A DNA stretch of 64,000 bases from positions 5,062-69,061 of the forward strand of contig CAYSAC010000002.1 of the NCBI GenBank assembly GCA_964428815.1. The letters run 5' to 3'. How positions within the stretch are numbered: position 1 is the stretch's first letter; the number at the start of each line of letters is the position of its first letter. The translations under genes were made by a program, and so were the position numbers. Below are positions 23,102 through 40,576 of the stretch, in pieces. This DNA comes from an uncultured Acidimicrobiaceae bacterium (GTDB taxonomy: Bacteria > Actinomycetota > Acidimicrobiia > Acidimicrobiales > CAYSAC01). The notes beneath the pieces were generated by a model. It was not told where the DNA came from. It was given only the letters and a program-made list of their open reading frames with translations, and did not search any database.

Positions 23102-23114
23102 CCGCAGGACTCCT

Positions 23115-24335
23115 TTAACGAAGAGCGGGAGGATCTTCATTCGTTGTGCTCAGGCGGCCGCCTAGATCAGCGACACCCGTGACGCTGGAGCGGCCGGTGA
23201 CGAAGAAGAGGATGGGCGGTGGCGGGACGGCAATCTTCGGGAAGGAAGGCGAGCCCAGCCCTACGTGGAGTGAGTATGACCCCGTCGCCAGCGCAACGGT
23301 GCACGAGATCCGCACCCGCAGCGATCCAGTGCCGGTGAAGCCTTCAAGCTCGTCGAGCAGCCACCGTTCGCCGTAGGCATGGACGCCTGACCCCGTGACG
23401 AGAGCGAGCCCGAGGATCGGTCTGTCGACCTTCTCGCGCATCGTGATCGATGCCTCGACGGTCATCGGGTCACCTGTCGCAAGGTGGCGGGTCGGCTCGC
23501 CGTCGAGTCCCACGAGCACGACGTCCTGAAGGTCGGCGGCGTCGATCGTCGCAGGCCCGGGCATCTCTACGGCATCGTTGGCATCGTCGATGTCGCGCGG
23601 CTCTCCGAGGAGCTCGTGGTAGGTCGACAGCGCCTCGACGGTGTCGCCGTCGTAGCGCACTGCGCCGTCGTGGATGACTATGGCTCGGTCGCAGAGCCGT
23701 CGTACGGCGTTCAGGTTGTGGGTGACGATGACGACTGTCGTACCCGACTCGCGCAACCGCTCCATGCGATCGAAGCACTTGAGCTGGAACGCGAGGTCAC
23801 CTACGGCGAGCACCTCGTCGATCAGCAGGACATCTGGATCCGCCATCGCAGAGACCGAGAACCCGAGGCGGACGAACATCCCCGATGAGTAGAACTTCAC
23901 AGGTGTGTCGAGGAAGTCCCCAATCTCGGCGAACGCCACGATCTCGTCGAAGCGTTCGTCGATCTGCTGGCGCGACAGCCCGAGGATCGCCCCGTTGACG
24001 TACACGTTCTCCCGACCAGTGAGCTCGGGATGGAAGCCCACACCGACGGAGATGAGCGGCGCGACGCGGCCCCGGACCTTGACCACGCCTTCGGTTGGTG
24101 CGGTGACGCCGGCCAGCATCTGCAGCAGGGTCGACTTGCCCGATCCGTTGCGCCCGATGATGCCGACGCAGTTGCCCCGCGCGATCTGGAAGCTCGCGTC
24201 GCGCAGGGCCCAGAGCGAGCTGCGCTTGGTCCGGTTGCGCAGGCGAAACAACCGGCTCACGAGCATCGGCGTGTCCTCGTACTTCACGTAGCGCTTGCCC
24301 ACGCCCGCGACGTCGATCGCGATCTGCTCGGTCAC
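23115..24335 (-). CDS. Polysaccharide-export ABC transporter ATP-binding protein (Wzt/TagH-like) with an extra ~160-aa C-terminal domain
   Basis: Walker A GRNGSGKSTLL, signature YSSGMFVRLGF, Walker B LLIDEVLAVGD. About 160 further residues follow the NBD. The GTG at 24335 overlaps the permease stop (GTGA). Confidence 0.85.
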   Translation of the reverse strand: MTEQIAIDVAGVGKRYVKYEDTPMLVSRLFRLRNRTKRSSLWALRDASFQIARGNCVGIIGRNGSGKSTLLQMLAGVTAPTEGVVKVRGRVAPLISVGVGFHPELTGRENVYVNGAILGLSRQQIDERFDEIVAFAEIGDFLDTPVKFYSSGMFVRLGFSVSAMADPDVLLIDEVLAVGDLAFQLKCFDRMERLRESGTTVVIVTHNLNAVRRLCDRAIVIHDGAVRYDGDTVEALSTYHELLGEPRDIDDANDAVEMPGPATIDAADLQDVVLVGLDGEPTRHLATGDPMTVEASITMREKVDRPILGLALVTGSGVHAYGERWLLDELEGFTGTGSLRVRISCTVALATGSYSLHVGLGSPSFPKIAVPPPPILFFVTGRSSVTGVADLGGRLSTTNEDPPALR

Positions 24336-25237
24336 AGCAGGTCGACGAACAGCCGGTCGAACCGTCGGTGGAGGTACACACCGATGACGAGCAGGCAGAC
24401 GCACCACCCGCCTGTCCAGAGGAGGGAGGTTGTCCAGCCCGGGTCAGCGCCGACCGTCGCTGCTCGGAAGGCCTCGACGATGCCGGTCACCGGGTTCGCC
24501 TCGATCCAGGGCCGAACCCGCCCGATCGCACTAAGCGGGTAGATCACGGGGGTGAGGTACAACCAGATGAGCAGGGCGGCCTGCACGAGGTAGCGGACAT
24601 CCCGGAAGTACACGTGAAGAGCCGAGAGCACGAGGGCGAAGCTGCCACCCAGGAGGAGCGGCAGCGCCATCGCTGGCAGCAACAGCAGCGTCCTGGGACC
24701 GATGCCGACGCCCGTGACGATCGTGGCCGCTATCAGCACAGCAACGCTGATCGCGAGACCGTAGGCAGCGGTCCACACCGTCACCAGCGGGAGGACCACC
24801 CGTGGGAAGTAGATCTTCGTCGTGAGACCTGCACCGTCGACGATGGAGGTTGCCCCGCCACTGATGATGCCGCTGAACGTGGCCCATGCGACGGTGCCCG
24901 ACAGCACGAACACGGCGTAGTCGCTGCCGGTCGCGAACTTGGCGATGCGGGGCACCACGAACGCAAGAGTTAACGCTTGAAGGAGCGGGAGCGCCGCCGC
25001 CCAGAGCAGCCCGAAGGACGCGCGCCGGTACCGGACGTAGAAGTCCTTGCGCGCAAGGATCGCTATGAGCTGGCGCGATCGCCAGGCAGAGGACAGCATG
25101 CTGCCCAACGATGGACGGCCGCCGTCGAGCGAGAAGCCCGCGGACGCGACCTCGTGGAACTCGTCGCTCTGCGCTCGTCCCCCGGTCGGTGCTGCGGCGG
25201 TCTCGCTCGTCGTCGGATCATCTGGTGTGGCAGGCAT
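24332..25237 (-). CDS. ABC-2-type polysaccharide-export permease (Wzm/TagG-like)
   Basis: LIAILARKDFYVRYRRASFGLLWAAALPLL, typical of ABC-2 exporters, followed by 6 hydrophobic helices. Translationally coupled to the ATPase. Confidence 0.8.
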   Translation of the reverse strand: MPATPDDPTTSETAAAPTGGRAQSDEFHEVASAGFSLDGGRPSLGSMLSSAWRSRQLIAILARKDFYVRYRRASFGLLWAAALPLLQALTLAFVVPRIAKFATGSDYAVFVLSGTVAWATFSGIISGGATSIVDGAGLTTKIYFPRVVLPLVTVWTAAYGLAISVAVLIAATIVTGVGIGPRTLLLLPAMALPLLLGGSFALVLSALHVYFRDVRYLVQAALLIWLYLTPVIYPLSAIGRVRPWIEANPVTGIVEAFRAATVGADPGWTTSLLWTGGWCVCLLVIGVYLHRRFDRLFVDLL

Positions 25238-25308
25238 GTGATCGCAGCCAGGTTGCCACAGACATCGCGTCAGGCTCGGAATCGACGAGCCACCGATAAT
25301 CTCCGGGG

Positions 25309-26241: not shown

Positions 26242-26280
26242 GTCAAGAGGGCGTGGCCGTCCCCTTGGAGCTGGTAGCCG

Positions 26281-26940
26281 TCAACCCGGGTGTTCGAGGG
26301 GAGGTGGCGGGTCGCCTACCTGATCGTGAGCCTCGGTCTGCCCACCGCGTCCGAACGGCACACGTCTCGCAGGGTTGCCGCTCACGAGGGTGTGTGGTGG
26401 AACGTCTCGGTTCACGACGGAGTTCGGCGCGATGACCGAGCACGCACCGATCGTGATCGAGCCGACCAGGACACAGTTGTTGCCGATCCAGGCCCCGGTC
26501 TCGATGCGTAGGGGACCTCCGAGTATCAACGGCGTCGCCCAGGGCGGCGAACCGTCCTCCGCCGCCTGCCAGTCATGCATGCTGTCGGCGATCGTGCACC
26601 CGTGCCCGATGCCGGAGCGCGGTTCCAACACGATGCCGTTGAGCGCGACGAAGCGCGCGTTGTGACCGATGATGCAGCCGTCGCCGATCTCGAGCACCAC
26701 CTGGCCGTACGGCGCGAGTGCCTCGATGCAGAGGTAGGACCTGATCTCGACGTTCTCGCCGATCGCCACGCTGCCAGGGTTGTGGAGGGCCACCCAGGGG
26801 TGGTCGATGTGCGAGCCGGCGCCGAACCGCGCGAAGCGGTGAGCGAGCGGGTCGCCGGCGCGGACGGTGAGGAGTCGGTGGCCACGCCGCTCGACGGCTT
26901 CGGCCAATGGTTGTAGCCAACGACGCAGGCGGGCCTTCAT
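26281..26940 (-). CDS. Left-handed beta-helix (hexapeptide-repeat) acyl/acetyltransferase
   Basis: Hexapeptide repeats IGENVEIRSY, IGDGCIIGHN, IETGAWIGNNCVLVGSITIGACSVIAPNSVV, then PPHTLVSGNPARRV. The ATG at 26940 overlaps the upstream TGA (ATGA). Confidence 0.8.
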   Translation of the reverse strand: MKARLRRWLQPLAEAVERRGHRLLTVRAGDPLAHRFARFGAGSHIDHPWVALHNPGSVAIGENVEIRSYLCIEALAPYGQVVLEIGDGCIIGHNARFVALNGIVLEPRSGIGHGCTIADSMHDWQAAEDGSPPWATPLILGGPLRIETGAWIGNNCVLVGSITIGACSVIAPNSVVNRDVPPHTLVSGNPARRVPFGRGGQTEAHDQVGDPPPPLEHPG

Positions 26941-28505
26941 TGCCGCAGAGTACGGCTCACGACAGCCTGGAGCGCTTGGCGGTCGACCTTCCCGGTTGAC
27001 GTCTGGGGCAGCGCCTCCACGGCGATGATCGTCCCTGGGATCATGTAGCGAGGAAGGTGAGCGGCACAGTGGCGCTTCACCTCTGTCGGATCGACCGGCT
27101 CGGTGGTCGCCAGGACGGCGACAAGTGCGTTGCCGATCCGTTCGTCCGGGACGGGCACGACCACTGCCTCACGCACCGCGGGGTGTGATGTGAGAGCGGT
27201 CTCGATCTCACCCAACTCGATGCGATACCCGCGGCTCTTTACTTGATGATCGCGGCGTCCGAGGAATTCGAAAGACTCGCCGGGCAGCCGGCGGACGAGG
27301 TCGCCGGTGCGGTATGTGGGGTCCGGGAACCGGTCGTGCAGCGGGTTCTGACGCAGCGCCCGTGCGGTGCGCTCGGTGTCGCCCCAGTACCCCTGCATGA
27401 GGGTGGGTCCGCGGACCCAGAGCTCCCCGACCGCACCGACGGGCGTAGGCGACAGCTCGTCGTCGAGCGCGAACACCTCCTGATTCTCACACGCGACGCC
27501 AATCGGCAATGGACGGTCGTCCTCGAGATCGCCGTCGACGACGTAGTAGGTACAGACGTTGGTCTCGGTCGGTCCGTAGAGGTTCGCCAACACTGCGTGT
27601 GGTACGAGCGAACGCAGGCGTTGAAGGTGCTTGATCGGAAAGACCTCGCCCGCGAACAGCACCACACGAAGGCTGCGTAGGTCGTCTGCGCTCGCGCCAT
27701 CGACCAGCAACGTGAGGGCCGACGGCGTGGAGTACCAGACCGTGACACCGGTCTCGCGGATGGCGTTGGCCATCCCGGCGCCGAAGCCCGTCTCGTACGG
27801 TGCCAGCAGCCGCACCATCGCTCCGGCGAGAGCGGCGCCATACAGGTCGAACACCGACAAGTCGAAGTGAAAGGGTGCATGGTTGGCGAGCCGGTCGTCG
27901 CGACATACCTGGAACCGATCGACGGCCCACTCCGCGAACGCCAGCGCGTTCCGGTGGGTCAGCATCACCCCCTTGGGAGCGCCGGTCGAACCTGACGTGT
28001 AGAGCAGGTAGGCGAGATCTGTTTCCGAACCGTTGCGGAGGTCCGTTGGGGTGACCTGCTCGACATCCACCCACGACACCGCGGCATCGGCGAGGTCGGC
28101 CGACAGGCTGAGGATCTGCGTGCCCTCTTGGAGCGGGGCCAGCGCGTCTTGCACGTTCGGGTTGTCGGTGCACACGACTCGACAACCGGCATCAGCCACG
28201 ATGCGCGAGCCGCGTGCTGGTGGCGACTGCGGGTCAACGGGTACATAGGCGGCGCCGGTGCCGAGGATCCCGTAGAGCGCTGCGACCGCCGCGGTCGATT
28301 TCGCAGACCAAATCGCGACACGATCTCCGGGGTGCACGCCAAGCTCGGTGAGCGCCGCCGCGACCTGTGCGGACCGGGTGGCCAGATCGCCGTACGTGAG
28401 CGTCCCGTCGGCTGCCGAAACTGCGAGCCGATCGGGGTCATCCTCGGCGGCACGCAGCATCGCGCCGTGCAGGGTGAAGACCGCCCGCCCGCCCGCTGAC
28501 GTCAC
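26937..28505 (-). CDS. Free-standing adenylation enzyme (ANL superfamily; DltA/PltF-like carrier-protein ligase)
   Basis: A3 LAYLLYTSGSTGAPKGV, A4 FDLSVFDLYGAAL, A5 NLYGPTETNV, A7 YRTGD, A8 GRRDHQVKSRGYRIELGEIE, A10 PQTSTGKVDR. No C, T or TE domain is fused. The GTG at 28505 overlaps the upstream TGA. Confidence 0.85.
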   Translation of the reverse strand: MTSAGGRAVFTLHGAMLRAAEDDPDRLAVSAADGTLTYGDLATRSAQVAAALTELGVHPGDRVAIWSAKSTAAVAALYGILGTGAAYVPVDPQSPPARGSRIVADAGCRVVCTDNPNVQDALAPLQEGTQILSLSADLADAAVSWVDVEQVTPTDLRNGSETDLAYLLYTSGSTGAPKGVMLTHRNALAFAEWAVDRFQVCRDDRLANHAPFHFDLSVFDLYGAALAGAMVRLLAPYETGFGAGMANAIRETGVTVWYSTPSALTLLVDGASADDLRSLRVVLFAGEVFPIKHLQRLRSLVPHAVLANLYGPTETNVCTYYVVDGDLEDDRPLPIGVACENQEVFALDDELSPTPVGAVGELWVRGPTLMQGYWGDTERTARALRQNPLHDRFPDPTYRTGDLVRRLPGESFEFLGRRDHQVKSRGYRIELGEIETALTSHPAVREAVVVPVPDERIGNALVAVLATTEPVDPTEVKRHCAAHLPRYMIPGTIIAVEALPQTSTGKVDRQALQAVVSRTLRQ

Positions 28506-29662
28506 AGGCCCATGCTCCGAGCGACGAGACGACGCATCATGTCGGACGTTCCTGAGTACAGGTGACCACCGACGGCGTCGCGCAGACGTCGCTCGAGAGG
28601 CAGCTCGCGGGTGAAGCCGTAACCACCGTGCACTTGGAGGAGCCGCAACTGCCCTTGAACGATGGCGTCGGTCGCCACGAGCTTGACCGCAGCGGCGTAG
28701 CCGGCGTCGGCATCTCCGCGGTCGTAGCGCATCGCGGTCTCATACAGCAGCGCACGCGCTGCGTCCAGCGCCACTCGCGTGTCGACCAGCTTGTCGCTGA
28801 CGGCTTGGAAGGCGGCTATTGGCTGACCGAATTGGTGGCGCGCCCGTGCGTAGTCGCACGCTTCATCGAGCGACCGTTCCAGTGAGCCCAATGCACTCGC
28901 CATGATGAGCGAGCGCTCCCATTGCATCGACGTCATGAAGATGCGAGCGCCGCGCCCCTCCTTGCCGAGGAGCGCGGACTCATCGAGTCGTACGTCGTCG
29001 AGCAGGATCTCCGCCATCGGCGACGTTCGCAGCCCGAGCTTCTCGATCGGCCGTTCGACCTCGAGTCCCTTTGCCCCCGCTTCGACGAGGAACGCGCTCA
29101 CACCAAACGGTCCTTCGGTCCCGGGCTCGCGTGCGAAGACGATGAAGAGATCGGCGATCGGGGCGTTGGTGATGAGCGTTTTGCGGCCCCGGAGCACGTA
29201 GTCGCCGCCCTCTCGACGTGCGGCTGTCCTGAGTCCGAATGCGTCGCTGCCCGAATCGGGCTCCGTCATTGCGTGCAGCCCGATCCATTCGCCGCTGCAC
29301 AGTTTCGGCAGGTAGGTTCTTCGCTGCTCGTCGTTCCCGAAGTGCCACAGCGGGATGACAGCGCTCCACAGGTGGGCGTTCACGGAGAAGGTGAGCCCTC
29401 CGTCGTCACAGCCGTAGCCGAGCGCCTCCAGGACCACCGCCGTCGTCAAGTGGTCGGCGCCGCCTCCACCGTGCTCGACAGGCGCGGGGAGACCGCACAA
29501 TCCGAACGTCGCGCAACGGCGCCAACCTTCTGCCCAGAATTCACCACGAGCGTCGCGGCTTCCGATCTCTGGATCGTGCAGTTGCTCGCGCGCGAACCGG
29601 CGGGCGGCTTCCGCGAGATCGCGCTGGTCGTCCGAGAGCAGCGGCGAGGCCGTCGGCGACAC
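28502..29662 (-). CDS. Acyl-CoA-dehydrogenase-family flavoprotein (possibly acyl- or aminoacyl-carrier-protein dehydrogenase)
   Basis: 386 aa with ACAD-like N, middle and C domains (GLHAMTEPDSGSD, ITNAPIADLFIVFA, LQVHGGYGFTRELPLERRLRDA). First gene of a three-gene coupled unit. Confidence 0.85.
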   Translation of the reverse strand: MSPTASPLLSDDQRDLAEAARRFAREQLHDPEIGSRDARGEFWAEGWRRCATFGLCGLPAPVEHGGGGADHLTTAVVLEALGYGCDDGGLTFSVNAHLWSAVIPLWHFGNDEQRRTYLPKLCSGEWIGLHAMTEPDSGSDAFGLRTAARREGGDYVLRGRKTLITNAPIADLFIVFAREPGTEGPFGVSAFLVEAGAKGLEVERPIEKLGLRTSPMAEILLDDVRLDESALLGKEGRGARIFMTSMQWERSLIMASALGSLERSLDEACDYARARHQFGQPIAAFQAVSDKLVDTRVALDAARALLYETAMRYDRGDADAGYAAAVKLVATDAIVQGQLRLLQVHGGYGFTRELPLERRLRDAVGGHLYSGTSDMMRRLVARSMGL

Positions 29663-29804
29663 GGACAGCAGGATGCCATATCCTCTCGTCGGTCGCTGAC
29701 GGTCTCAGTGCGTGGACATCGCGAGGCGGAAATGTTCCGGCCCGCGCTTGTACGCTGCATGCGACCACATGGTCCCTTGCTCGCAGCCTTGCCTCGGAGG
29801 CACG

Positions 29805-30044
29805 TTGATCGACATCGAACCCCTACGGACCTTCATACGGCGCGAGTTCTTGTTCGACAGGAATGCAGACCTGCCCGACGATCTCGAGCTGTTCCCCAGC
29901 GTCCTCGATTCGCTCGGCGTCATGGAGCTGGTCGAGTTCGTGGAGGAGACGTACGCGGTCGAGCTCAACCAGCCTGACTTGGCAGCCGACAACTTTCGTA
30001 GCATCACGGCGATCGCCGAGCTGATCCAGCGGAAGACGGCGTGA
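29805..30044 (+). CDS. Stand-alone acyl/peptidyl carrier protein
   Basis: 79 aa from the TTG at 29805, preceded by GGAGG (29796-29800, 4-nt spacer). Phosphopantetheine site LDSLGVMELVEFVE (Ser codon 29910-29912). The track model starts at 29712, and an ATG at 29769 is an alternative. Confidence 0.65.
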   Translation: MIDIEPLRTFIRREFLFDRNADLPDDLELFPSVLDSLGVMELVEFVEETYAVELNQPDLAADNFRSITAIAELIQRKTA

Positions 30045-31057
30045 GGCCCGAGCACGCTCGCATCAGCGCCCGCATCCGACTGACCCGGCTCGCGCTCGAC
30101 GGCTGGGCTGCGCAGGTCCTGTTTGCCGCGAACGAGCTGGGGATCTTCGACCTGCTCGCCCGCAAGGGCGCGTCGTCGTCGGCCGCCGTGGCAGCGGAGC
30201 TCGGCACCGACCCGGATGCAACTCGTCGACTGCTCGGCGTGCTCTGTGCCGTCGGAGTGATCGAGCGCGACGGCGATCATTTCGACAACGGGCTCGGGGC
30301 GCGTGAGTTCCTGGTGTCAGGGACCGACGAGTCGATGGTCACCTGGGTGAACCTGATCGGCACATGGAACCAGACGTTCAGCCATCTAGCTGAGTCGGTG
30401 CGATCCGGTGAGCCGGCGGAGGTGCCGGAGGAGCACCTTGGGAGGTCCGACGACTACACGCGCACGTTCATCCTCGGCATGCACGACTACGCGCTCGGAC
30501 CCGGTCATGAGCTGGCGCAGCACCTCGACCTCACCGAGCGCCGCCGCCTTCTCGATGTCGGCGGCGGGCCGGGGACGTACTCCGTGCTGCTCACCGAGAC
30601 GAACCCGGAGCTGCATTGCACGATCTTCGATCTGCCCGAAGTGGTACGAATCGCGGCGGAGGTTGTCAGCGCTCGAGGCCTGCAGGATCGGGTCGACATG
30701 CACGCCGGCGATTACCACGCCGATGAGTTCCCCACCGGATTCGACGCCGTGCTCGTTTCGAACACGCTGCACCAAGAGGACGACGAGTCGTGTCTGCGCA
30801 TCTTGAAGGCCTCGTTCAGGTCCCTCGATCCAGGTGGTCTCATGATCGTTCACGCCATGCCGCTCGGCGAGGATCAGGACGGGCCGCTCTGGCCGGCATT
30901 GCACAACCTATTGATGCTCCTCGTGTATCGCGGCGGACGCGCCTACACCGCCGGTCAGTACTGCCAGCAGCTGGTCGATGCCGGCTTCGAGGATCCTGAG
31001 GTGCACGCGATGTCGGCGTTCAACGCCGGGTCGTACATCACCGCTCACCGCCCATAG
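30041..31057 (+). CDS. Family-2 (small-molecule type) SAM-dependent O-methyltransferase
   Basis: N-terminal winged-helix/dimerisation region, then LLDVGGGPGTYSVLL, IFDLPEVV, GDYHADEFPTGFDAVLVSNTLH. The GTG overlaps the carrier-protein TGA. Confidence 0.8.
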   Translation: MRPEHARISARIRLTRLALDGWAAQVLFAANELGIFDLLARKGASSSAAVAAELGTDPDATRRLLGVLCAVGVIERDGDHFDNGLGAREFLVSGTDESMVTWVNLIGTWNQTFSHLAESVRSGEPAEVPEEHLGRSDDYTRTFILGMHDYALGPGHELAQHLDLTERRRLLDVGGGPGTYSVLLTETNPELHCTIFDLPEVVRIAAEVVSARGLQDRVDMHAGDYHADEFPTGFDAVLVSNTLHQEDDESCLRILKASFRSLDPGGLMIVHAMPLGEDQDGPLWPALHNLLMLLVYRGGRAYTAGQYCQQLVDAGFEDPEVHAMSAFNAGSYITAHRP

Positions 31058-31093
31058 GCGCAGCGAGCGACGCCTGTACGCTACCGATTCGCC

Positions 31094-31900
31094 ATGGAGA
31101 CCGTCTTCTCGCTCGACCGAACTCGGCTGGACGCGATAGCCGAGGCTGATGGGGAGGGCTACCGGAGCGCACAACCGTTTCCACACATCGTCATCGACGA
31201 CTTCCTCCCGGCGGAAGTGCTCGAGCTGGTGTTGGGCGAGTTCCCCTCAGCGCATGCGATCGACTGGATGCAGTTCGACAGCGGCACAGAGAAGAAGCTC
31301 GCGAGCACGGGCGAAGACGGGATGGGTCCTGCAACGCGGAGGTTGCTCGCGGAGCTGAACGGCGCCATCCTGATCGACTTCCTGACCAAGCTGACCGGCA
31401 TCGAAGGCTTGGTTCCCGATCCCCACTTTGTCGGCGGCGGTCTGCACCAGATCGAGCGGGGTGGCTTCCTCGAGGTGCACGCCGACTTCAACCTCCACCC
31501 TTTGACCGGGCTGGAGCGCCGGCTCAACCTGCTCGTCTACCTCAACCGAGACTGGGACTCGTCGTGGGGTGGTGCGCTCGAGCTGTGGAGTGCGGACATG
31601 AGGCGCTGCGAGGCGAGGATCGATCCCGTCTTCAACCGGTGCGTGGTGTTCAACACGACCGACCGGTCGTTCCACGGGCACCCGACGGCGCTCAGGTGCC
31701 CTGAAGGGAGGACGCGCAAGTCGCTCGCGCTGTACTACTACGCACGGGACGCCGACCCGGCCGACGAGCGCGGCGCGCACAACACGATCTTCAAGGACCG
31801 ACCGAGCCGGTTGCGCAGGTTGGGGGAGGACCTTCTGCCTCCGGTCGCCGTGCGGGGCTTGCGACGCGTCAGGCGCGCGAACCCCGGACAGCGCCGGTGA
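31094..31900 (+). CDS. 2OG-Fe(II) oxygenase superfamily protein (prolyl-4-hydroxylase-like)
   Basis: H-x-D in GGFLEVHADFN, distal His in DRSFHGHP, LNLLVYLNRDWDSSWGGALELW. Confidence 0.7.
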   Translation: METVFSLDRTRLDAIAEADGEGYRSAQPFPHIVIDDFLPAEVLELVLGEFPSAHAIDWMQFDSGTEKKLASTGEDGMGPATRRLLAELNGAILIDFLTKLTGIEGLVPDPHFVGGGLHQIERGGFLEVHADFNLHPLTGLERRLNLLVYLNRDWDSSWGGALELWSADMRRCEARIDPVFNRCVVFNTTDRSFHGHPTALRCPEGRTRKSLALYYYARDADPADERGAHNTIFKDRPSRLRRLGEDLLPPVAVRGLRRVRRANPGQRR

Positions 31901-32778
31901 AGGCGACCGCGCTTGCCAAGCGAGCGGTGCGGCGCGCCATCCGAGCGGTGGCGACGTGGGCTGAAGGAGACGATCGCAGGCCCCCCTCGGCAGTGCTTGG
32001 GGCTCAGCCGGATCCGATCAACGTGAGCGCCTTGTACGCCTCGCTCCGCGGCGCGGGGTCGACGGTGCGCGCCCAGTACCTGTGGGGTGTTCTGCACGCA
32101 GCTCGTGCCGCATCGAGCGCCGATCTCGACGGATTCAGTGCGCTCGAGTTCGGAGTCGCGGGCGGCAACGGCCTCTTAGAGCTGGAGGCGGCGGCGAGGG
32201 TTGCGGAGGAGATCTACGCGGTCGAGATCGAGGTCGTCGGCTTCGACAGCGGCGCGGGCATGCCGGCGCCGATCGACCACCGTGACGTGCCGTGGGTCAT
32301 CAAGCCAGGTTTGCTCGCCATGGACGAGCCTCGCCTCCGAGCGCGTCTCACCCGTGCGGACCTGGTGCTCGGTCCCGTGGTCGACACTGTGCCGCAGTGG
32401 CTCGCCGGGACGCACCGCCCGGTCGGGTTCATCGCCTTCGACCTCGACTACTACTCGTCGACGATCGATGCCTTCCAGGTGCTCGATGCCGCCGACCTTG
32501 CGCTGCTGCCTCGCATCGTGTGCTACTTCGACGACCTGTTCGGCTACGGGTGGAGTGACGTAAACGGCGAGCGGGCCGCGATCGTCGACTTCAACGACGC
32601 CCATCGATGCCGCAAGATCGCGAAGATCCACGGCCTGCGGTACGAGCTGCCACTCGAAGACGGCATGCGCCCCTGGCCTGAGCTGATGTACCTCGCCCAC
32701 ATCCTCGACCACGCCCGCTACAACGACTTCGAGCAGACCGTGTCCGAGGACTTCCTCGACGCGAACGGTCTCGCCTGA
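31897..32778 (+). CDS. Hypothetical protein, possibly Rossmann/class I methyltransferase-like (TylF-like)
   Basis: 293-aa ORF with GC3 bias, coupled to the oxygenase by GTGA. Only weak cues: ALEFGVAGGNGLLEL resembles SAM motif I, plus FIAFDLDYYSST. No confident family assignment. Confidence 0.45.
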   Translation: MKATALAKRAVRRAIRAVATWAEGDDRRPPSAVLGAQPDPINVSALYASLRGAGSTVRAQYLWGVLHAARAASSADLDGFSALEFGVAGGNGLLELEAAARVAEEIYAVEIEVVGFDSGAGMPAPIDHRDVPWVIKPGLLAMDEPRLRARLTRADLVLGPVVDTVPQWLAGTHRPVGFIAFDLDYYSSTIDAFQVLDAADLALLPRIVCYFDDLFGYGWSDVNGERAAIVDFNDAHRCRKIAKIHGLRYELPLEDGMRPWPELMYLAHILDHARYNDFEQTVSEDFLDANGLA

Positions 32779-32842
32779 GCAATGGAGCGGGAAAGCTCGG
32801 TCAGTTCGGATCGTCGCCCCGCCGAAGCCGGCCCGGTCCACG

Positions 32843-34453
32843 TTGCTTGAGGTCCGCGCGGTCGATCTCGCAGTCGTCATCCCGACCCGCGACCGTTGGC
32901 AGATCCTCCAGCGGACGGTTGACGCACTCGCTGCCCAGAGCGCGCAAGGCGCCGAAGTCATCGTCGTCGTCGACGGCGGCGACACACCGGCGCCGGCCGT
33001 CACGGGGGCACGCGTCTTGCAGCAGGAACACGCCGGGCCCGGTGCCGCGCGCAACCGTGGCGTGCGGGCCACGGAGCGTCCGCTCGTCCTCTTTCTCGGG
33101 GACGACATCATCCCGACCGTTGACCTCGTCGCCGCCCACCTCGATGCCCACCGTCGCCACCCCGAGGCCACGAGCGCCGTCCTCGGCCGCACCGACTGGC
33201 ACCCTGGTGTCGCGGACCAGGCGCTCATGCGCTGGCTCGACTCGTCCGGCGGCCAGTTCGACTTCCAGGGCATCGTCGGTGACGACGCTGGGTGGGGTCG
33301 CTTCTATTCCTCGAACGTGTCGCTCAAGCGTTCGCTCTTCGTCGACGTCGGCGGGTTCGACGAGGATTTCACGTTCGATTACGAGGACCTCGATATCGCG
33401 TGGCGGCTGCACCGGAAGGGGATGCAGCTCTGGTACGAGCGGGGCGCTCTTGCTCACCACCTGCACAGCTATGACTGGCAGGGGATCCGCCGTCGCTACG
33501 AGAGCCGCGCCCGTGCGGAGCGGCTCATGCAGTCCAAGCACGACTGGTTCCAGCCGTGGTTCGCTGAGATCGCCGGCAGCGCAGCACGTCAGCCGCCCGT
33601 GTCCGACCTTTGGCCCCGCGTGGTCGAACGGGTGCCCGGGTGGCCGCGATCGTTGCGCCGACTGGCGCGCGATCGTGCCAACCGGTGGTACCAGCAGCAG
33701 ATCGCTCCGACCTTCCTGGCCACGTGGGAGGGGCAGCCCGACCTTGAAGAGCTGCAGGCCTACCTCGGTGACGACTTCGACGTCGACCTGCTCCATGGGC
33801 ACGTCACTGCCGTGGACGCGGAGGAGGAGGCAGCGGGCGACGAGGCGACGTTCTACCGCACGAGCCGGATGTACTTGTACGACCTCACCGCGTTCGCCAT
33901 GACAGGCACGAAGCGCCCGTACCTCAACGACCTGCGCCGCTTCGTGCCACCGGGGTCGTCGCTGCTCGACTACGGCTGTGGGGTCGGCACCGACGGGTTG
34001 CGACTGCTGGCCGAGGGCCATCGTGTCTCCTTCGCTGACTTCGCCAACCCGAGCACGGAGTACCTCCGGTGGCGGCTGTCCCGGCGCGGATCAGATGCCC
34101 CTGTCTATGACCTCGATCGTGACGAGCTCCCTGGAGGGTTCGACGCGGCGTACTCCCTCGATGTCATCGAGCACGTGGATGACCCGTTCGACTTCCTCGA
34201 CCGCCTCGAGCGCCAGGCCGGCATCGTGATGGTCAACCTGCTCGAACCGGATCCACACGACACCCACCTGCACAGGCCGCTCCCGATTCCCGACCTGCTC
34301 GACCACGCGGCATCGCTCGGCATCCTGCGATACAGGCGCTACCACGGGCGCTCGCACCTGGTGATCTACCGCACCCGCCGGCCGGGGCGGCGGGGCCAGG
34401 TTCGCAGCGTGCTGCAGCGACACCTGGGCTCTCGCCTGCGCCCCAGCGTCTGA
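32843..34453 (+). CDS. Bifunctional GT2 glycosyltransferase / class I SAM methyltransferase fusion
   Basis: N-terminal LAVVIPTRDRWQILQRTVDAL, VIVVVDGGD, LFLGDDIIP. C-terminal LLDYGCGVGTDGLRLL (near 33961-33996), AYSLDVIEHVDDP. TTG start from the track. Confidence 0.8.
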   Translation: MLEVRAVDLAVVIPTRDRWQILQRTVDALAAQSAQGAEVIVVVDGGDTPAPAVTGARVLQQEHAGPGAARNRGVRATERPLVLFLGDDIIPTVDLVAAHLDAHRRHPEATSAVLGRTDWHPGVADQALMRWLDSSGGQFDFQGIVGDDAGWGRFYSSNVSLKRSLFVDVGGFDEDFTFDYEDLDIAWRLHRKGMQLWYERGALAHHLHSYDWQGIRRRYESRARAERLMQSKHDWFQPWFAEIAGSAARQPPVSDLWPRVVERVPGWPRSLRRLARDRANRWYQQQIAPTFLATWEGQPDLEELQAYLGDDFDVDLLHGHVTAVDAEEEAAGDEATFYRTSRMYLYDLTAFAMTGTKRPYLNDLRRFVPPGSSLLDYGCGVGTDGLRLLAEGHRVSFADFANPSTEYLRWRLSRRGSDAPVYDLDRDELPGGFDAAYSLDVIEHVDDPFDFLDRLERQAGIVMVNLLEPDPHDTHLHRPLPIPDLLDHAASLGILRYRRYHGRSHLVIYRTRRPGRRGQVRSVLQRHLGSRLRPSV

Positions 34454-34587
34454 GCGGAGACGGCACGACGATCGCGCGCGTCGTTCATAGACGACGCCGG
34501 TGGTCGCGGGTGATCCGGGTCGGCGGCCCACTCCGCCCTGCACGCCCCGCCGGTCGCTGCAACTGCTTGACTATCCAGGTGACATCA

Positions 34588-35361
34588 GTGCCCGAGCCCA
34601 CCGTGCCGGCCGCCGTGTACAACGAGGCGTACTACCGCGGGTGGTGCGCGGGGTACGAAGAGTGGGTCGCCTCCGATGGCAGTGGCGCGGCAGGCCTGTA
34701 CCCCGGGTTCCTCACGCGGGCCGACCTGCGCCCGGGAGAGGTCGTCGTCGACCTCGGCACCGGACGCGGCGAGCTGCTCGCGGTCGCGGTCGAGATGGGT
34801 GCGGAGCGGGCGTACGGCATCGAGTACTCACCCGACGCGGTGCGCATGGCCCAGCAGACCTTGCAGCGGCACGGGGTCGAGGACCGGGCGCAGGTGCTCC
34901 TCGCCGACGCCCGCAGCGACGTCCTGCCCAGTGGCATCGCGGACCTCGTGTGCCTGGTCGACGTCGTGGAGCATCTGGCTCCCCACGAGCTCGACGCGAC
35001 GCTGCGCCAAGCGCATCGGTTGTTGAAGCCCGGCGGTCGGGTGGTCGCCCACACGCTCCCCAATCGGCTCGTGTACGACGTCACCTACCACCTTCTTCGC
35101 TGGACGGTAGGACTCGGTCGATGGCCGAAGGACCCCCGCGGGGAGCTCGAGAAGACGATGCACATCAACGAGCAGAGTCTCCGCTCTTTGAAGCGGGTGT
35201 TCGAGCGTGCCGGGTTCGACGTTGAGGTCACGCTGGGCCAGTGGATGCACACCGCCATGGTCCCGAGCGCGCGGGCCCGCCGCATCTACCACCTGCTGGC
35301 ACGAATGGGGCCGCTCGCCCAGTTGGGTGCCGGTGACCTGTGGGCCACCGGGCGTCGCTGA
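34588..35361 (+). CDS. Class I SAM-dependent methyltransferase
   Basis: VVVDLGTGRGELLAVAV, AYGIEYSPDAV, LVDVVEHLAP, LLKPGGRVVAHT. I prefer the GTG start at 34588, which lies behind AGGTGA (5-nt spacer). The track model starts at 34510. Confidence 0.8.
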   Translation: MPEPTVPAAVYNEAYYRGWCAGYEEWVASDGSGAAGLYPGFLTRADLRPGEVVVDLGTGRGELLAVAVEMGAERAYGIEYSPDAVRMAQQTLQRHGVEDRAQVLLADARSDVLPSGIADLVCLVDVVEHLAPHELDATLRQAHRLLKPGGRVVAHTLPNRLVYDVTYHLLRWTVGLGRWPKDPRGELEKTMHINEQSLRSLKRVFERAGFDVEVTLGQWMHTAMVPSARARRIYHLLARMGPLAQLGAGDLWATGRR

Positions 35362-35468
35362 GCCCACGCGCTCGCGGCCGAAGCGAAGGCGACCGACCCC
35401 ACCGGCGTCACACCGACACGTGAACGGCGGCCGATCAGTAATCACGACCGTCGCCGTATCCTTCCCAG

Positions 35469-36416
35469 ATGGCAGCAAGGCGGGGGCTTCTGGGCAGACG
35501 CCACGACTTGAGCGGTGCTGCGCCGCAGGTGGCGGCCGTCCCGGCGGTTGACGACCGCCCGGCGCCACCGGACGGAGCGCGGAACCTGGTGGTAGTGGTT
35601 CTCGACAGCCTGCGATGGGACGTCGCTGTCGAGGCCGGCATGCCGAACCTCGAGCGACTCGCACCAATCGAGAGGCGGTGGAGCTACGCATCCTGGACGG
35701 CACCCTCGCACTACAACCTCCTCATGGGACTGCTCCCGCACTCCAGCCCCACCAACGTCTACGCGTCCGAGTACTACAAGAAGGACTTCGCGCGTTACAC
35801 CGAGCGCCTCGGTGTCGACGGTGTCGAGTTCCGCGATCTGCTCCCGTCCATCTACCTTCCCACCTATCTCCGCTCGAAGCTTGGCTACCGAACCGGCGCG
35901 ATGGTCTCGATGCCCGTGCTCAACCCGGCGACGGCGATCAACCGCGACTTCGACACCTACGAGCTCATGGCTCGTCACAATGACTTCGCGACGATGATCG
36001 ATCGCATACGGTTCGACACGGAGCGGCCGTCGTTCCACTTGCTGAACGTGGGTGAGACCCACTACCCGTACGCGCTCCCCGACGAGGATCCGTCCGAGTG
36101 GCCCAGGATCTCCGGAGTCCACGGCGTGTTCAAGCACTTGGACGAGCAGATCGTCGGTGGCCAGCTCGTCGTGGACGACGAGCCCCGCTTCTTCGATGAG
36201 GAGCAGCTGAATGCGCTACGCGCTCGCCAGGTGCGGGCCGCGGGGTTCGTCGACGGTTTACTCGAAAAGCTGATGGACGTAGTTCCGAAGGGGACCTGGC
36301 TGATCGTCACCGCGGACCACGGCGAGCTGTTCGGCGAAGGTGGCTACTTCGGCCACGGCCCGATCGCCCACGAGAAGGTCTTCGAGGTGCCGTTCGCCGA
36401 AGGCCTCGTTCGCTAG
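35469..36416 (+). CDS. Alkaline-phosphatase-superfamily enzyme, NPP/phosphodiesterase-like (Thr nucleophile), not a canonical sulfatase
   Basis: Metal-site start NLVVVVLDSLRWD. At the sulfatase C-x-P-x-R position it has T-A-P-S-H (SWTAPSHYNLLMG; Thr codon 35697-35699), resembling the NPP box TFPNHYS. C-terminal LIVTADHGELFGEGGYFGHG. Confidence 0.7.
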   Translation: MAARRGLLGRRHDLSGAAPQVAAVPAVDDRPAPPDGARNLVVVVLDSLRWDVAVEAGMPNLERLAPIERRWSYASWTAPSHYNLLMGLLPHSSPTNVYASEYYKKDFARYTERLGVDGVEFRDLLPSIYLPTYLRSKLGYRTGAMVSMPVLNPATAINRDFDTYELMARHNDFATMIDRIRFDTERPSFHLLNVGETHYPYALPDEDPSEWPRISGVHGVFKHLDEQIVGGQLVVDDEPRFFDEEQLNALRARQVRAAGFVDGLLEKLMDVVPKGTWLIVTADHGELFGEGGYFGHGPIAHEKVFEVPFAEGLVR

Positions 36417-37460: not shown

Positions 37461-38939
37461 TCAGAGGTACCCCAGCAGCCGCATTTGCTGTTCGAGGTCG
37501 GTGTCTGCCAGCACGTCGGGATCGGCCGGGTCGAGGCTGTGCTTCGGACGCTCACCAGCCTCGGCCTCATCGAGGGCGACCCGCAGTGGGCGGAGCCGCG
37601 AGCCGTAGTCGGTCTCGACGCGGCCGCTGACGATGACGGGCGCCTCCTCGATGGGGTCGCGCTCGAGATCGACCAGCTCCTCGCGGCCGAGTCGCCGGAT
37701 GAGCTTCACAGAGCCGTCCGTGGCGCAGGTGAACGACGTGCATAGCCTCCGAGCCGCCTCGTCCCCGAGTCCCCAACCCTCGAGCAACTCCGCGACGCGC
37801 GGATCACCGGGCGTGCCAGGCGCGTCGAACTGCGCCACCGCGGGACCACCCATGGGGCCCTCGGACCAGGGGTGAGCGCCGAGGTCGAGCGACCTGGCGA
37901 GCAGTCTGGGGACGTCGGCCACGGAGAGCACCGGAGGCGGGCAGAGGTCCAGAGGACCACTTGCCACGAACGGCACTCGGATCAGGCGGTCGTCGAGCGA
38001 GAATGCGTGTCCGACGAGGTTGCCGTCGCCGAAGTTCTCGCCGTGGTCGGAGGTCAAGATCACCTCCGTGTCAGCCAGGATGCCGCGGCCGTCCAAGGTC
38101 TCGAGCACGCGGGCGAGCCAGCTGTCCAGCTGGCGGATCGCGGCGGCGTAGCTCCTCCGCATCCGGTCGAGGGCGTCTTCAGGTACGTCGAGGCCACCCA
38201 CCCCGCCCTTCCACAGCTCGCTGAAGTTGAGGTGTCGTCGCGCCTCGATAGCGGTCTTCACGCGGTCGATGAGTCCGAGGTCGTTCCAGGGCTTCGGGGG
38301 CAAGTACGGGGAATGGCACTCGATCAGGTTGACGAACAGGAAGAACGGTCGACCGTCGCCAGCGCCGGTCCATTGGTCCAGCAGCGCTGCGACCGCCTCG
38401 GCTCCGTCGTCGGTCCGTGCGCGGACCGCCTCGAGCACCCAGCGGGCCTGGTGACGCAGACCACCTGGCGTGATGCCTGCGAAACGGCCGCCCTTCAGGT
38501 GGTGGAACGTCTCGAAGCCCGTGTCGAACCCGCTCTTGGGGGAGACCCACGCGTTGGTGCTCACCCCGTAGGTCGCGTAGCCGGCATCACCGAGGACGCG
38601 CGGCAGGAGGTCGGCTTCCATCTCGCGCATCGCCGCGCAGTAGCCCGCCGGCTCTTGGCCGCCGATGTGACCGAGACCCGCGCTGCGTGGGAGCTCACCG
38701 GAGAAGAGCGAACCGTGGGCCGGCACCGTCCAGCAAGCGGTGCTGAACGTGGCCTGATGGGCGAGGCCGGTCGCGGCAAGCTGCTCGACCGTCCGTGACG
38801 CGCCGGCTGGCGCGCCGTACGGCTCGAACGCGTCGGCGCGCGCGGTGTCGAACACGACGAGCAGGATGTTGGGCTTCACGTCCGGCGGAGTGTAGAGGAG
38901 CGTGCGCGGCGGGATGACCGCGACGAGTAGCCGTGTCAA
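37461..38939 (-). CDS. Sulfatase-family (alkaline phosphatase superfamily) protein with a non-canonical T-V-P-A-H active-site box
   Basis: PNILLVVFDTARADAF, then STACWTVPAHGSLFSGELP where sulfatases have C-x-P-x-R (Thr codon 38727-38729, His 38715-38717). VILTSDHGENFGDGNLVGH. No signal peptide seen. Confidence 0.75.
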   Translation of the reverse strand: MTRLLVAVIPPRTLLYTPPDVKPNILLVVFDTARADAFEPYGAPAGASRTVEQLAATGLAHQATFSTACWTVPAHGSLFSGELPRSAGLGHIGGQEPAGYCAAMREMEADLLPRVLGDAGYATYGVSTNAWVSPKSGFDTGFETFHHLKGGRFAGITPGGLRHQARWVLEAVRARTDDGAEAVAALLDQWTGAGDGRPFFLFVNLIECHSPYLPPKPWNDLGLIDRVKTAIEARRHLNFSELWKGGVGGLDVPEDALDRMRRSYAAAIRQLDSWLARVLETLDGRGILADTEVILTSDHGENFGDGNLVGHAFSLDDRLIRVPFVASGPLDLCPPPVLSVADVPRLLARSLDLGAHPWSEGPMGGPAVAQFDAPGTPGDPRVAELLEGWGLGDEAARRLCTSFTCATDGSVKLIRRLGREELVDLERDPIEEAPVIVSGRVETDYGSRLRPLRVALDEAEAGERPKHSLDPADPDVLADTDLEQQMRLLGYL

Positions 38940-39769
38940 CGTCGACGAGTACTACGTTGCCGACCGTGACATCGCTCGCACAGCGAATCGCCGAACTCAG
39001 CTGGTACCACACGATAGAGCTGCCCGAGGGTTTGACAACTGCGGGTTTGTTCGACCTGCGGGGCGTTGTGGCGACGCTGCCGATCCCTACGTCTCTCGCG
39101 GGCAAGCGCTGCTTGGACATCGGAACATGCGACGGCTTCTGGGCATTCGAGCTAGAGCGTCGAGGTGCGGCCGAGGTCATCGCGATCGATCTTCTCGATC
39201 CCGCCGACCGGGATCGCACAGCGTCGGTCACTCAGCTCGAAGGCGTCGTCACACGTGCTGCCGCCACCTTCGCTCTCGCGCACGAGGCGCTGGGGTCACG
39301 CGTGACCTTCATTGAGAAGAACGTCTATGACCTCTCGCCCGACGATGTCGGCTTGTTCGACTTCGTGTTCATGGGCAGCCTCCTGCTCCACCTCCGCGAC
39401 CCCGTTCGTGCGCTCGCTGCAGTGCGCTCGGTCGTGTCCGGCGAGCTCCTGTCCTATGACTCGATCTCCCCGATGCTCAGCGTGCTCGCCCCGCGAACCC
39501 CCGTGGCCAGGCTCTATGGTCAGGCCCGCAACGAGTGGTGGATCCCGAACAAGGCCGGGCGCATTCGTGAGCTCGAGGCGGGGGGCTTCCGCGTGCTGCG
39601 CAAAGGCGGCGTGTCGTGGGTGGCGCGGCGCGGGATCGCGCTACGACCCTCCTCGTTCCGCCGGCGGCCGTTCGCCGTTGCTCTCCTCGCGCTCAAGGGC
39701 GCGCCGCACTCGTGGGTCCTTGCTGCTCCCGACGCTCGAGGTCCCGCAATTCGTCGCGATCGACCGTAA
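38933..39769 (+). CDS. Class I SAM methyltransferase, WYHTIELP-type (paralogue 1 of 3)
   Basis: SWYHTIELPEGLTTAGLFDLR, RCLDIGTCDGFWAFELERRGAAEVIAIDLLD. Start uncertain: the GTG at 38933 overlaps the divergent gene start, and TTG 38957 and GTG 38966 are alternatives. Confidence 0.75.
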   Translation: MSTSTSTTLPTVTSLAQRIAELSWYHTIELPEGLTTAGLFDLRGVVATLPIPTSLAGKRCLDIGTCDGFWAFELERRGAAEVIAIDLLDPADRDRTASVTQLEGVVTRAAATFALAHEALGSRVTFIEKNVYDLSPDDVGLFDFVFMGSLLLHLRDPVRALAAVRSVVSGELLSYDSISPMLSVLAPRTPVARLYGQARNEWWIPNKAGRIRELEAGGFRVLRKGGVSWVARRGIALRPSSFRRRPFAVALLALKGAPHSWVLAAPDARGPAIRRDRP

Positions 39770-39778
39770 ACGGCTGGA

Positions 39779-40576
39779 TCAGCGTGACGGGCGGGGCGGA
39801 CGCGGTGTCGCTCGGAGGCTCCGGAACAGGAGGCCGCGCTTGGTCGGCCGGCGCGCGGCGATCGAGTGGAGCGCGCTGTTGCGGAAGGATTGCTTGGGTG
39901 CGCCCGGACCGAACGGCACGACGAAGCGCTTGCCGAGCGTCGTGATCTCGAAGCCAGCGCGCTCGACGAGCTGCACGAGGCCACGGGAATTCACCCGCCA
40001 CCATTGGTCCCAGTCCGAGTTGAAGTGCGCCGCCGGCACGCGCGGGGCCGCCAGCTCCAAGTAGGGATCGAGGTGCTCCACGAGCACGAGCTCACCCCGG
40101 CACACGCCGCGCATGCGCTCCAGGGCTCGGACCGGTTCGGCGAGGTGCTCGAGGAGCGCGCCGCAGAAGACGACATCGAACGTCCCTGCCGTGCCCTCGT
40201 CGAGGTCATAGACCGAGCAATCCACTCGGGTGGCCTTGGATCCCGTCAGCGCCGCTGCTCGAACGAAGCCAGGCCCCCGCTCGCTGCCCCACGACCTGAC
40301 GAGCGCGGGTCCGCTTTCGCGCTCGTCGTAGAACCAGTCGAGCTTCTCGGGGTCGTCGACGTCGAGGGCGACGACCTCGGCCGCGCCACGCCGCTCCATC
40401 TCGAACGCCCAGAACCCGTCGAAGGTGCCGACGTCAAGACATCGTCCGCCAACGATCTGCGACGGCCACGTGACCCAGATCGGCGCGCTGCGGGTGTCGA
40501 ACCACCCGCGGGTGTGCCTTCCATCAGGGAGATCGATGGTGTGGTACCAGACTCGCGATGCCTCCTCGCCGGTCAT
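39779..40576 (-). CDS. Class I SAM methyltransferase, WYHTIDLP-type (paralogue 2 of 3)
   Basis: VWYHTIDLPDGRHTRGWFDTR, RCLDVGTFDGFWAFEMERRGAAEVVALDVDD, VVFCGALLEHLAEPVRAL. Confidence 0.8.
   Translation of the reverse strand: MTGEEASRVWYHTIDLPDGRHTRGWFDTRSAPIWVTWPSQIVGGRCLDVGTFDGFWAFEMERRGAAEVVALDVDDPEKLDWFYDERESGPALVRSWGSERGPGFVRAAALTGSKATRVDCSVYDLDEGTAGTFDVVFCGALLEHLAEPVRALERMRGVCRGELVLVEHLDPYLELAAPRVPAAHFNSDWDQWWRVNSRGLVQLVERAGFEITTLGKRFVVPFGPGAPKQSFRNSALHSIAARRPTKRGLLFRSLRATPRPPRPSR

Follow-up and report, generated by a model that had tools for sequence, protein, structure and literature searches.

We examined seven consecutive genes at positions 29805-36416 of a 64,000-nucleotide stretch of DNA from an uncultured Acidimicrobiaceae bacterium (contig CAYSAC010000002.1, positions 5,062 to 69,061; hereafter the window), and found that they are two independent modules lying side by side and not one operon. 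Module A comprises a carrier protein and a family-2 methyltransferase on the plus strand and an acyl-CoA dehydrogenase (ACAD)-family flavoprotein, an adenylation enzyme and a left-handed beta-helix (LbH) acyltransferase on the minus strand. Module B comprises a 2-oxoglutarate (2OG) oxygenase, a protein of 293 amino acids (aa) and a glycosyltransferase family 2 (GT2)-methyltransferase fusion, with an enzyme bearing a T-A-P-S-H motif loosely joined to it. Taken as a whole, the explanation that we favour, and that we judge slightly likelier to be right than wrong, is that module A is a proline acyl cassette and module B a widespread sugar-chain decoration set, the two acting independently. All of the evidence is computational: genes were called from third-position GC (GC3) and family searches (Pfam, NCBIfam), and the comparison loci (L009, L010 and so on) are mostly metagenomic, absences in incomplete bins being weak evidence.

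The seven genes are as follows.

29805..30044, plus strand: carrier protein of 79 aa, with a TTG start 4 nt after GGAGG and an LDSLG phosphopantetheine-attachment motif
30041..31057, plus strand: family-2 S-adenosylmethionine (SAM) methyltransferase with a dimerisation domain (PF00891, 98.6 bits; PF08100, 52 bits)
31094..31900, plus strand: 2OG/Fe(II) oxygenase (2OG-FeII_Oxy_3), prolyl-hydroxylase/Tpa1/OGFOD1-like (PF13640, 68 bits)
31897..32778, plus strand: 293-aa protein with a probable TylF/CalS11-like fold (CalS11 profile match, AlphaFold (AF2) model); GTGA overlap with the oxygenase stop
32843..34453, plus strand: GT2 glycosyltransferase fused to a class I methyltransferase (both domains recognised)
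34510..35361, plus strand: class I SAM methyltransferase (PF13489, 75 bits; GC3 0.87)
35469..36416, plus strand: soluble alkaline-phosphatase-superfamily enzyme, STM4013-like, with a T-A-P-S-H motif (TAPSH at residue 77)

A sequence-only reading of this DNA had described seven plus-strand genes with short gaps, and each is present where it was described, with a GC3 of 0.83-0.87. The intergenic gaps measure 36, 64, 56 and 107 bp. The two translational couplings that had been proposed are both present: the carrier-gene stop overlaps the GTG start of the family-2 methyltransferase gene as GTGA, and a second GTGA joins the oxygenase and 293-aa genes. A rival frame at 34500-35225, competing with the methyltransferase at 34510-35361, was dropped (GC3 0.48, no family match). 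No terminator-like site was found on the plus strand between the seven genes, in a scan that is weak for high-GC bacteria, and a hydropathy scan detected no membrane helix in any of the seven proteins, so that all of their steps would be cytoplasmic.

Comparison with other genomes separated these genes into two sets. We identified the module A cassette at nine distinct other actinobacterial loci (L012/L017, L013/L020, L014, L015, L016, L018, L019, L021 and L022), and neither an oxygenase nor a 293-aa gene lay within 10 kb of it in any of them (0/9); five cassette genomes, whose completeness is not established, carried no 293-aa homologue anywhere. Reciprocally, 85 loci centred on a 293-aa or oxygenase gene (80 metagenome loci and five found by lookup) contained no adenylase, ACAD, carrier-protein or family-2 methyltransferase gene (0/85) and no LbH orthologue, the single exception being a partial LbH gene where the L009 contig breaks off. 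Of 400 genomes sampled across the phylum, two had the 293-aa gene, and neither belonged to the 42 other genomes that gave an ACAD match. The window is the only place so far where the two modules touch. The sequence-only reading had raised the question of whether the adenylase, carrier protein, ACAD, methyltransferase and oxygenase travel together; the methyltransferase does (with the carrier protein in 9/9 loci and the ACAD in 8/9) and the oxygenase does not (0/9). Nor does the carrier module travel with the 293-aa protein, the GT2-methyltransferase fusion or the T-A-P-S-H enzyme, all of which had been assigned to the same operon. We found no orthologue of the methyltransferase at 34510-35361 in L009-L022, and this gene is conserved with neither module.

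Locus L009 can be aligned with window positions 22376-34453, over which it carries orthologues (60-74% identity) of a methyltransferase (MT11), Wzt, Wzm, a GT2 glycosyltransferase (GT2a), the oxygenase, the 293-aa gene and the GT2-methyltransferase. There, the exporter block stands in the opposite orientation and is not separated from the oxygenase by a cassette; the oxygenase gene borders directly on a methyltransferase gene, and the partial LbH orthologue (54%) sits at the contig end.

These distributions bear on the scheme suggested from the sequence, hydroxylation and O-methylation of the carrier-bound acyl group. In this genome, the oxygenase would hydroxylate a carrier-bound prolyl or pyrrolyl group, the family-2 enzyme would O-methylate the new hydroxyl, and the resulting methoxy-pyrrole-2-carbonyl would be moved to a sugar. 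In favour of this, the two genes lie on one strand, separated by 36 bp in which no terminator-like site was found; the oxygenase is a member of the prolyl-hydroxylase/Tpa1/OGFOD1 group, and the predicted carrier substrate is a prolyl thioester; and the methyltransferase keeps H244, the equivalent of the catalytic-base histidine. However, the oxygenase is missing from all nine cassette loci, its partner 293-aa gene from the five cassette genomes and the cassette from all 85 oxygenase- or 293-aa-centred loci, and the two sets share no genome among the 400 sampled, the window genome apart. Furthermore, the methyltransferase orthologues (56-82% identity) evidently function without the oxygenase, and the gene with which that of the oxygenase is translationally coupled here and fused elsewhere is that of the 293-aa methyltransferase, not the family-2 enzyme. 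Given that the oxygenase is tied to a partner of its own and turns up, at many loci and in two sampled genomes, where no cassette was found, hydroxylation followed by O-methylation on the carrier-bound acyl group is unsupported, and we regard it as quite unlikely.

Module A extends onto the minus strand, where three further genes form an ACAD-adenylase-LbH operon divergent from the carrier gene.

26281..26940, minus strand: LbH hexapeptide-repeat acyltransferase (PF00132, 48.6 bits), last gene of the operon
26937..28505, minus strand: stand-alone adenylation enzyme, predicted to be L-proline-specific (TIGR01733; specificity code)
28502..29662, minus strand: ACAD-family flavoprotein, putatively of prolyl-carrier-protein dehydrogenase type (closest to RedW and PigA models; AnaB and PigA structures)

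The adenylase scored 388.8 bits against TIGR01733 (cut-off 317.4), and its ten-residue specificity code, read against GrsA numbering, is DLFYLALVCK. This is one residue apart from the code of PltF (6o6e; DLLYLALVCK), and the proline ligase 7thn (7thn_B) has DLFYIAWVCK. Scores for the pocket segment fell from PltF (6o6e, 110.9 bits) through 7thn (84 bits) and DltA (61.6 bits) to LgrA (53.5 bits). In the cassette loci, all adenylase orthologues have either DLFYLALVCK or DLLYLALVCK, and more distant ACAD-linked adenylases carry one of these or a near variant. A literature search for the string DLFYLALVCK found no paper. The whole protein scored best against the second LgrA module (464 bits), which activates glycine, but the pocket matched PltF at 110.9 bits versus 53.5 for LgrA, and the LgrA reading was rejected.

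The flavoprotein gave its best NCBIfam matches to the RedW-type (381 bits) and PigA-type (377 bits) models, and its best matches among solved structures to AnaB (4irn, 330 bits) and PigA (5zw0, 284 bits); generic ACADs reached at most 257 bits, 73 bits behind the best. The proline code, together with an ACAD nearest to AnaB, PigA and RedW, indicates that the acyl group is proline-derived, and it is predicted to be oxidised to a pyrrole (as by PigA, RedW and PltE) or a pyrroline (as by AnaB). An AnaB-like two-electron outcome is as compatible with the sequence data as a four-electron oxidation to a pyrrole-2-carbonyl-S-carrier product. The carrier protein fell below the curated cut-offs (PF00550, 18.3 versus 20.8 bits; AmcB ACP model, 37.5 versus 80 bits, E=2e-9). 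The nearest models of the LbH enzyme are the WcaF and NeuD/PglB/VioB sugar acetyltransferases, its gene overlaps the adenylase gene in the window, and it presumably transfers the acyl group from the carrier protein onto a sugar. Module A can therefore be described, from these predicted specificities, as a putative proline-to-pyrrole (or dehydroproline) cassette with an added methylation step.

The enzyme of that added step, the family-2 methyltransferase, lies well above the Pfam gathering thresholds (98.6 versus 22.3 bits for PF00891; 52 versus 25.6 bits for PF08100) and belongs to a tight family (~338 aa, 56-82% identity) with an invariant SAM motif (D172, G175, G176 and G178) and an invariant H244-Q-E-D; the histidine equivalent to H244 is the catalytic base in family-2 O-methyltransferases. 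Among 40 genomes of the same order we found only distant paralogues, at 34% identity or less. The closest solved relatives of the family profile are DsyB (S-methylation), SibL (C-methylation), ASMT, CalO6 and MmcR, and the 60 best solved relatives are all small-molecule (S-, C-, O- or N-) methyltransferases, with none (0 of 60) a sugar methyltransferase by name. The enzyme therefore does not group with sugar O-methyltransferases, in line with what had been expected of it from the sequence. The island in which it lies is rich in sugar-modifying methyltransferases and sulfotransferases, and a reading in which all of the tailoring enzymes, this one included, act directly on sugars while the carrier protein is a mere neighbour would suit such surroundings. 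The small-molecule character of its relatives speaks against this, as does the position of its gene, which always directly follows the carrier gene, and we consider the reading highly unlikely. Direct action on sugars, which the sequence-only reading had offered as its alternative, is nevertheless the better fit for module B, the T-A-P-S-H enzyme included. Since coupling to the carrier gene is constant, the data suggest that the family-2 methyltransferase acts on the carrier-bound ring, and N- or C-methylation of the pyrrole or pyrroline is our best guess.

The nine other cassette loci bear out this coupling. The methyltransferase gene directly follows the 79-aa carrier gene in 9/9, overlapping it or nearly abutting, and the carrier protein is 45-64% identical across them. 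A divergent ACAD gene faces the pair in eight of the nine, the adenylase is present in 7/8 assessable loci and follows the ACAD wherever the contig extends, and five of the nine have an LbH orthologue (52-60% identity) adjacent to the cassette; L021 has no adenylase or ACAD locally. The 400-genome sample contained 18 loci with an ACAD at 46-67% identity, 14 of them with an adjacent adenylase, and only one of the 18 (in the L015 genome) had the carrier-methyltransferase pair. At the other ACAD loci, whose ACAD-adenylase pairs are 46-52% identical, we found no methyltransferase within the 1.5 kb read per side. As related ACAD-adenylase pairs thus occur with no methyltransferase nearby, the enzyme looks like a fifth conserved cassette member in this actinobacterial lineage, a tailoring step added in one sub-lineage.

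The same loci bear on the acceptor of the acyl group. Glycosyltransferase genes adjoin the cassette in L013/L020, L015, L018 and L019, and in L015 an orthologue of the GT2-methyltransferase (54%) lies beside it; in L012/L017, L014 and L021, the cassette sits among housekeeping genes with no glycosyltransferases within 10 kb, and in L012 a GDSL hydrolase replaces the LbH gene. Such settings would suit a cassette, methyltransferase included, whose product is a small, diffusible metabolite derived from proline or an envelope modification other than of a glycan, and which lies in the glycan island by chance. However, the LbH gene of the window, which overlaps that of the adenylase, encodes a protein resembling sugar acetyltransferases, glycosyltransferase genes do adjoin the cassette at the loci just named, and window family searches revealed no condensation, thioesterase or reductase release domain near the cassette; we think a diffusible or non-glycan product improbable.

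At L015, the closest cassette locus outside the window, the LbH-adenylase-ACAD, carrier-methyltransferase and GT2-methyltransferase genes sit between housekeeping genes, and a phosphopantetheinyl transferase and a radical SAM enzyme (L015:1733-2392 and L015:8662-9747) flank the set. At two syntenic loci, a FAD enzyme of the Trp_halogenase family is encoded near the carrier-methyltransferase cassette (L014:4875-6188 and L021:7544-9142; 96.6 bits in L021). Known pathways include halogenases of this family that use pyrrolyl-carrier proteins as substrates, and the nearby gene fits such chemistry.

In module B, the oxygenase scored 68 bits against PF13640 (cut-off 27), and its profile matched OGFOD1 (E=4.3e-6). 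In 24 homologues, residues H129, D131, H194/H196 and R208 are invariant; they correspond to an H-x-D...H iron triad and a basic residue that binds 2OG. The gene context of this oxygenase points to a glycan-linked role.

The 293-aa protein, called unassignable from the sequence, can be assigned a fold. Its family is large (>900 proteins, >565 metagenome stretches). We found no Pfam or NCBIfam family for the protein at E <= 0.01, and no Pfam match is on record for the 120 listed family members, except for the domains of a fusion partner. A profile built from 20 members matched CalS11, a TDP-rhamnose 3'-O-methyltransferase, with E=2.8e-5; the motif FDLDYYSST aligned with fdldlyept of CalS11, and this match is the sole sequence link. 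The AF2 model of the protein has a predicted local distance difference test (pLDDT) score of 80.4, and its top Foldseek matches were CalS11, SpnH, MycF, the mycobacterial MeT1 and NovP (E 2e-7 to 1e-4, TM-scores 0.4-0.64), with CmcI among the weaker ones. Residues E84/G86-G92, G115-F116-D117, D182 and D212-D213 are invariant in the family, and at least 90% of members have D184. Going by profile and model, the protein has a divergent TylF/CalS11-like sugar O-methyltransferase fold and is probably metal-dependent. Because no Pfam or NCBIfam model recognises it, we file it as working like a TylF-type enzyme and not as a member of a curated family.

The order of oxygenase, 293-aa gene and GT2 gene (with or without the methyltransferase domain) recurs in L009, L010, L011, L027, L031, L135 and L136, and partial triads occur on short contigs. 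Orthologues of the GT2-methyltransferase (48-69% identity) lie directly 3' of the 293-aa gene, and a single protein (P0059, 489 aa) fuses an oxygenase domain to a 293-aa domain. L010 and L136 encode orthologues of the T-A-P-S-H enzyme (64-66% identity) a few kb away from the triad, and a methyltransferase related to that at 38933-40576 is often found upstream of the triad, in divergent orientation.

Several neighbouring genes recur around the triad. The two alkaline-phosphatase-fold genes at 35469-36416 and 37461-38939 (Thr-type) have orthologues that are adjacent to each other in L010 and L136 (64-66% and 45% identity, respectively), and they seem to be a conserved pair of the triad glycan gene set. 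Relatives of the paralogous methyltransferases at 38933-40576 and 45661-46677 (the first two TIGR04290-like) occur in most triad and cassette loci at 41-72% identity, often divergent from the oxygenase. Directly after the triad of L136 (L136:10704-13079) lie an 83-aa open reading frame, a 448-aa AMP-binding enzyme and a short-chain dehydrogenase, possibly a different carrier-type acyl module beside the triad. Among the 40 same-order genomes, the sole 293-aa homologue (L024; G008:C7:31657-32334; 45% identity) lies in a 467-aa open frame, the N-terminal half of which has no Pfam match.

Both modules belong to a glycan island of roughly 50 kb that includes a Wzm/Wzt exporter; positions ~1 to 52 kb of the window, which has a G+C content of ~69%, form this single large island. 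It encodes a Bac_transf initiating transferase, a Wzy_C-like protein and several GT4 and GT2 glycosyltransferases, as well as at least 10 methyltransferases, four intact sulfotransferases and sulfatase-fold proteins. The exporter genes are as follows.

23115..25237, minus strand: Wzm permease and Wzt ATPase with a Wzt_C domain (PF01061, PF00005, PF14524)

Wzt additionally matched teichoic-acid and galactan exporter models, and the Wzm/Wzt pair is the export route of the glycan that both modules would decorate. Window family searches found no DegT-type aminotransferase, which would point to an amino-sugar acceptor, and O-acylation is therefore as likely as N-acylation. The source genome is a fragmentary metagenome bin (697 contigs, 73% complete), and those relatives of its proteins that carry a name belong to the Actinomycetota (Microthrixaceae, Solirubrobacteraceae and Thermoleophilaceae).

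In the mechanism that we propose for the two modules, the adenylase would load L-proline onto the carrier protein, and the ACAD-type flavoprotein would oxidise the prolyl group to a dehydroprolyl or pyrrole-2-carbonyl thioester. The family-2 enzyme would methylate the carrier-bound ring (N-, C- or O-) with no need for the neighbouring oxygenase, and the LbH acyltransferase would, still in the cytoplasm, pass the acyl group on to a sugar of the growing glycan. Module B would work on the sugar chain, the GT2 enzyme adding a sugar and the methyltransferase domains O-methylating sugars, while the oxygenase would work with the 293-aa methyltransferase, perhaps making the hydroxyl that the latter methylates. 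Hydroxylation followed by O-methylation of a sugar position by this pair would fit both the fusion and the fold. Observed directly are the identities of the genes, the proline code and both patterns of co-conservation; the order of these steps, the site of methylation, the sugar that accepts the acyl group and the substrate of the oxygenase are inferred. Tentatively, the product could be an ATP-binding cassette (ABC)-exported surface glycan that bears a methylated pyrrole-2-carbonyl (or dehydroprolyl) group and oxygenase/TylF-like methoxy marks on its sugars, and the mark or marks could be a chain-end signal read by the C-terminal domain of Wzt; we hold this picture to be possible and on balance rather doubtful.

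Several observations weigh against the account of two independent modules with a sugar-bound proline-derived acyl group. Only 36 bp separate the methyltransferase gene from the prolyl-hydroxylase-type oxygenase gene that follows it, and the genome is predicted to make a prolyl thioester; a local recruitment of the oxygenase to this thioester is conceivable, if quite unlikely. A pyrrole with no hydroxyl leaves an enzyme of an "O-methyltransferase" family with no obvious target unless the oxygenase is present. The ACAD stays under both equivalog cut-offs (650 bits for the RedW-type and 500 for the PigA-type model), and AnaB, its best structural match, performs a two-electron oxidation only, so the product may be a pyrroline and not a pyrrole. 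The structure model of the oxygenase is poor (pLDDT 64.5) and yielded weak Foldseek matches to Tpa1 only (E ~0.02). Finally, three cassette loci (L012, L014 and L021) lack glycan genes in their surroundings, so a sugar may not be the acceptor in every case.

Module A resembles the thiotemplated (type II non-ribosomal peptide synthetase) pyrrole cassettes PltF/PltL/PltE of pyoluteorin, PigI/PigG/PigA of prodigiosin and RedM/RedO/RedW, of which AnaC/AnaD/AnaB of anatoxin-a is a two-electron variant. As in those systems, a stand-alone proline adenylase, here with a near-PltF code, is accompanied by a small separate carrier protein and by an ACAD flavoprotein nearest to AnaB, PigA and RedW. Unlike them, module A has no downstream polyketide or peptide assembly line, and its ACAD is below the RedW and PigA equivalog cut-offs; its partners are a sugar-type LbH acyltransferase and a family-2 methyltransferase in a Wzm/Wzt glycan island.

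Transfer of a pyrrole acyl group to a sugar has a parallel in clorobiocin and coumermycin A1, where CloN3/N4/N5 make a pyrrolyl-carrier protein and the acyl group is placed on the 3-OH of noviose, a sugar O-methylated by NovP/CloP. There, too, a carrier-made pyrrole-2-carbonyl is esterified to a sugar on which a TylF-family enzyme acts, NovP being one of the fold matches of the 293-aa protein. However, the acceptor in that case is one deoxysugar of a small antibiotic and no polymer, enzymes of other families carry out the transfer, and C-methylation of the clorobiocin-type pyrrole is attributed to a radical-type enzyme and not to a family-2 methyltransferase. Acyl groups built for glycans offer a second parallel, since in the tetronate branch of Vibrio cholerae O1 (RfbK-O) sugars of the O-antigen receive a carrier-protein-dependent N-acyl decoration, and AntD of the anthrose pathway is an LbH acyltransferase. 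In both, dedicated enzymes of the glycan cluster build the acyl group and a hexapeptide-repeat transferase hands it to the sugar; in contrast, the acyl group proposed here is an oxidised, methylated proline ring, and no amino-sugar aminotransferase was seen in the window. The sequence-only reading had proposed a hybrid of secondary-metabolite and polysaccharide logic, and this idea proved sound for the carrier protein and the family-2 methyltransferase. Searches of the literature library used, pairing pyrrole-2-carboxyl with polysaccharide or O-antigen, found no paper that describes pyrrole- or dehydroproline-acylated polysaccharides.

The 293-aa protein shares with the TylF superfamily (CalS11, SpnH, MycF, NovP, MeT1) its fold, the SAM glycine motif and an acidic D-x-D ... 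D-D pattern. It differs from these enzymes in an identity of only 15-22% and in being always paired, and occasionally fused, with a 2OG oxygenase. That pairing recalls CmcI/CmcJ, the cephamycin 7-methoxylation pair, in which an oxygen-dependent hydroxylation partner acts with a methyltransferase of TylF/CmcI fold; the pair in the window would likewise install a methoxy group. The substrate here is probably a sugar, whereas that of CmcI/CmcJ is a beta-lactam.

What is new in this system is the conserved methyltransferase in the cassette, and module B. The island would have been assembled from two mobile modules dropped side by side, and same-strand adjacency is accordingly a poor guide to a shared pathway. 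For the large unnamed family of the 293-aa protein, the analysis supplies a testable candidate function, that of a TylF-like sugar O-methyltransferase, along with a fixed 2OG oxygenase partner. If our explanation is true, surface glycans of soil Actinomycetota would carry an aromatic heterocycle made by the chemistry of pyoluteorin and prodigiosin, to which this lineage would add methylation.

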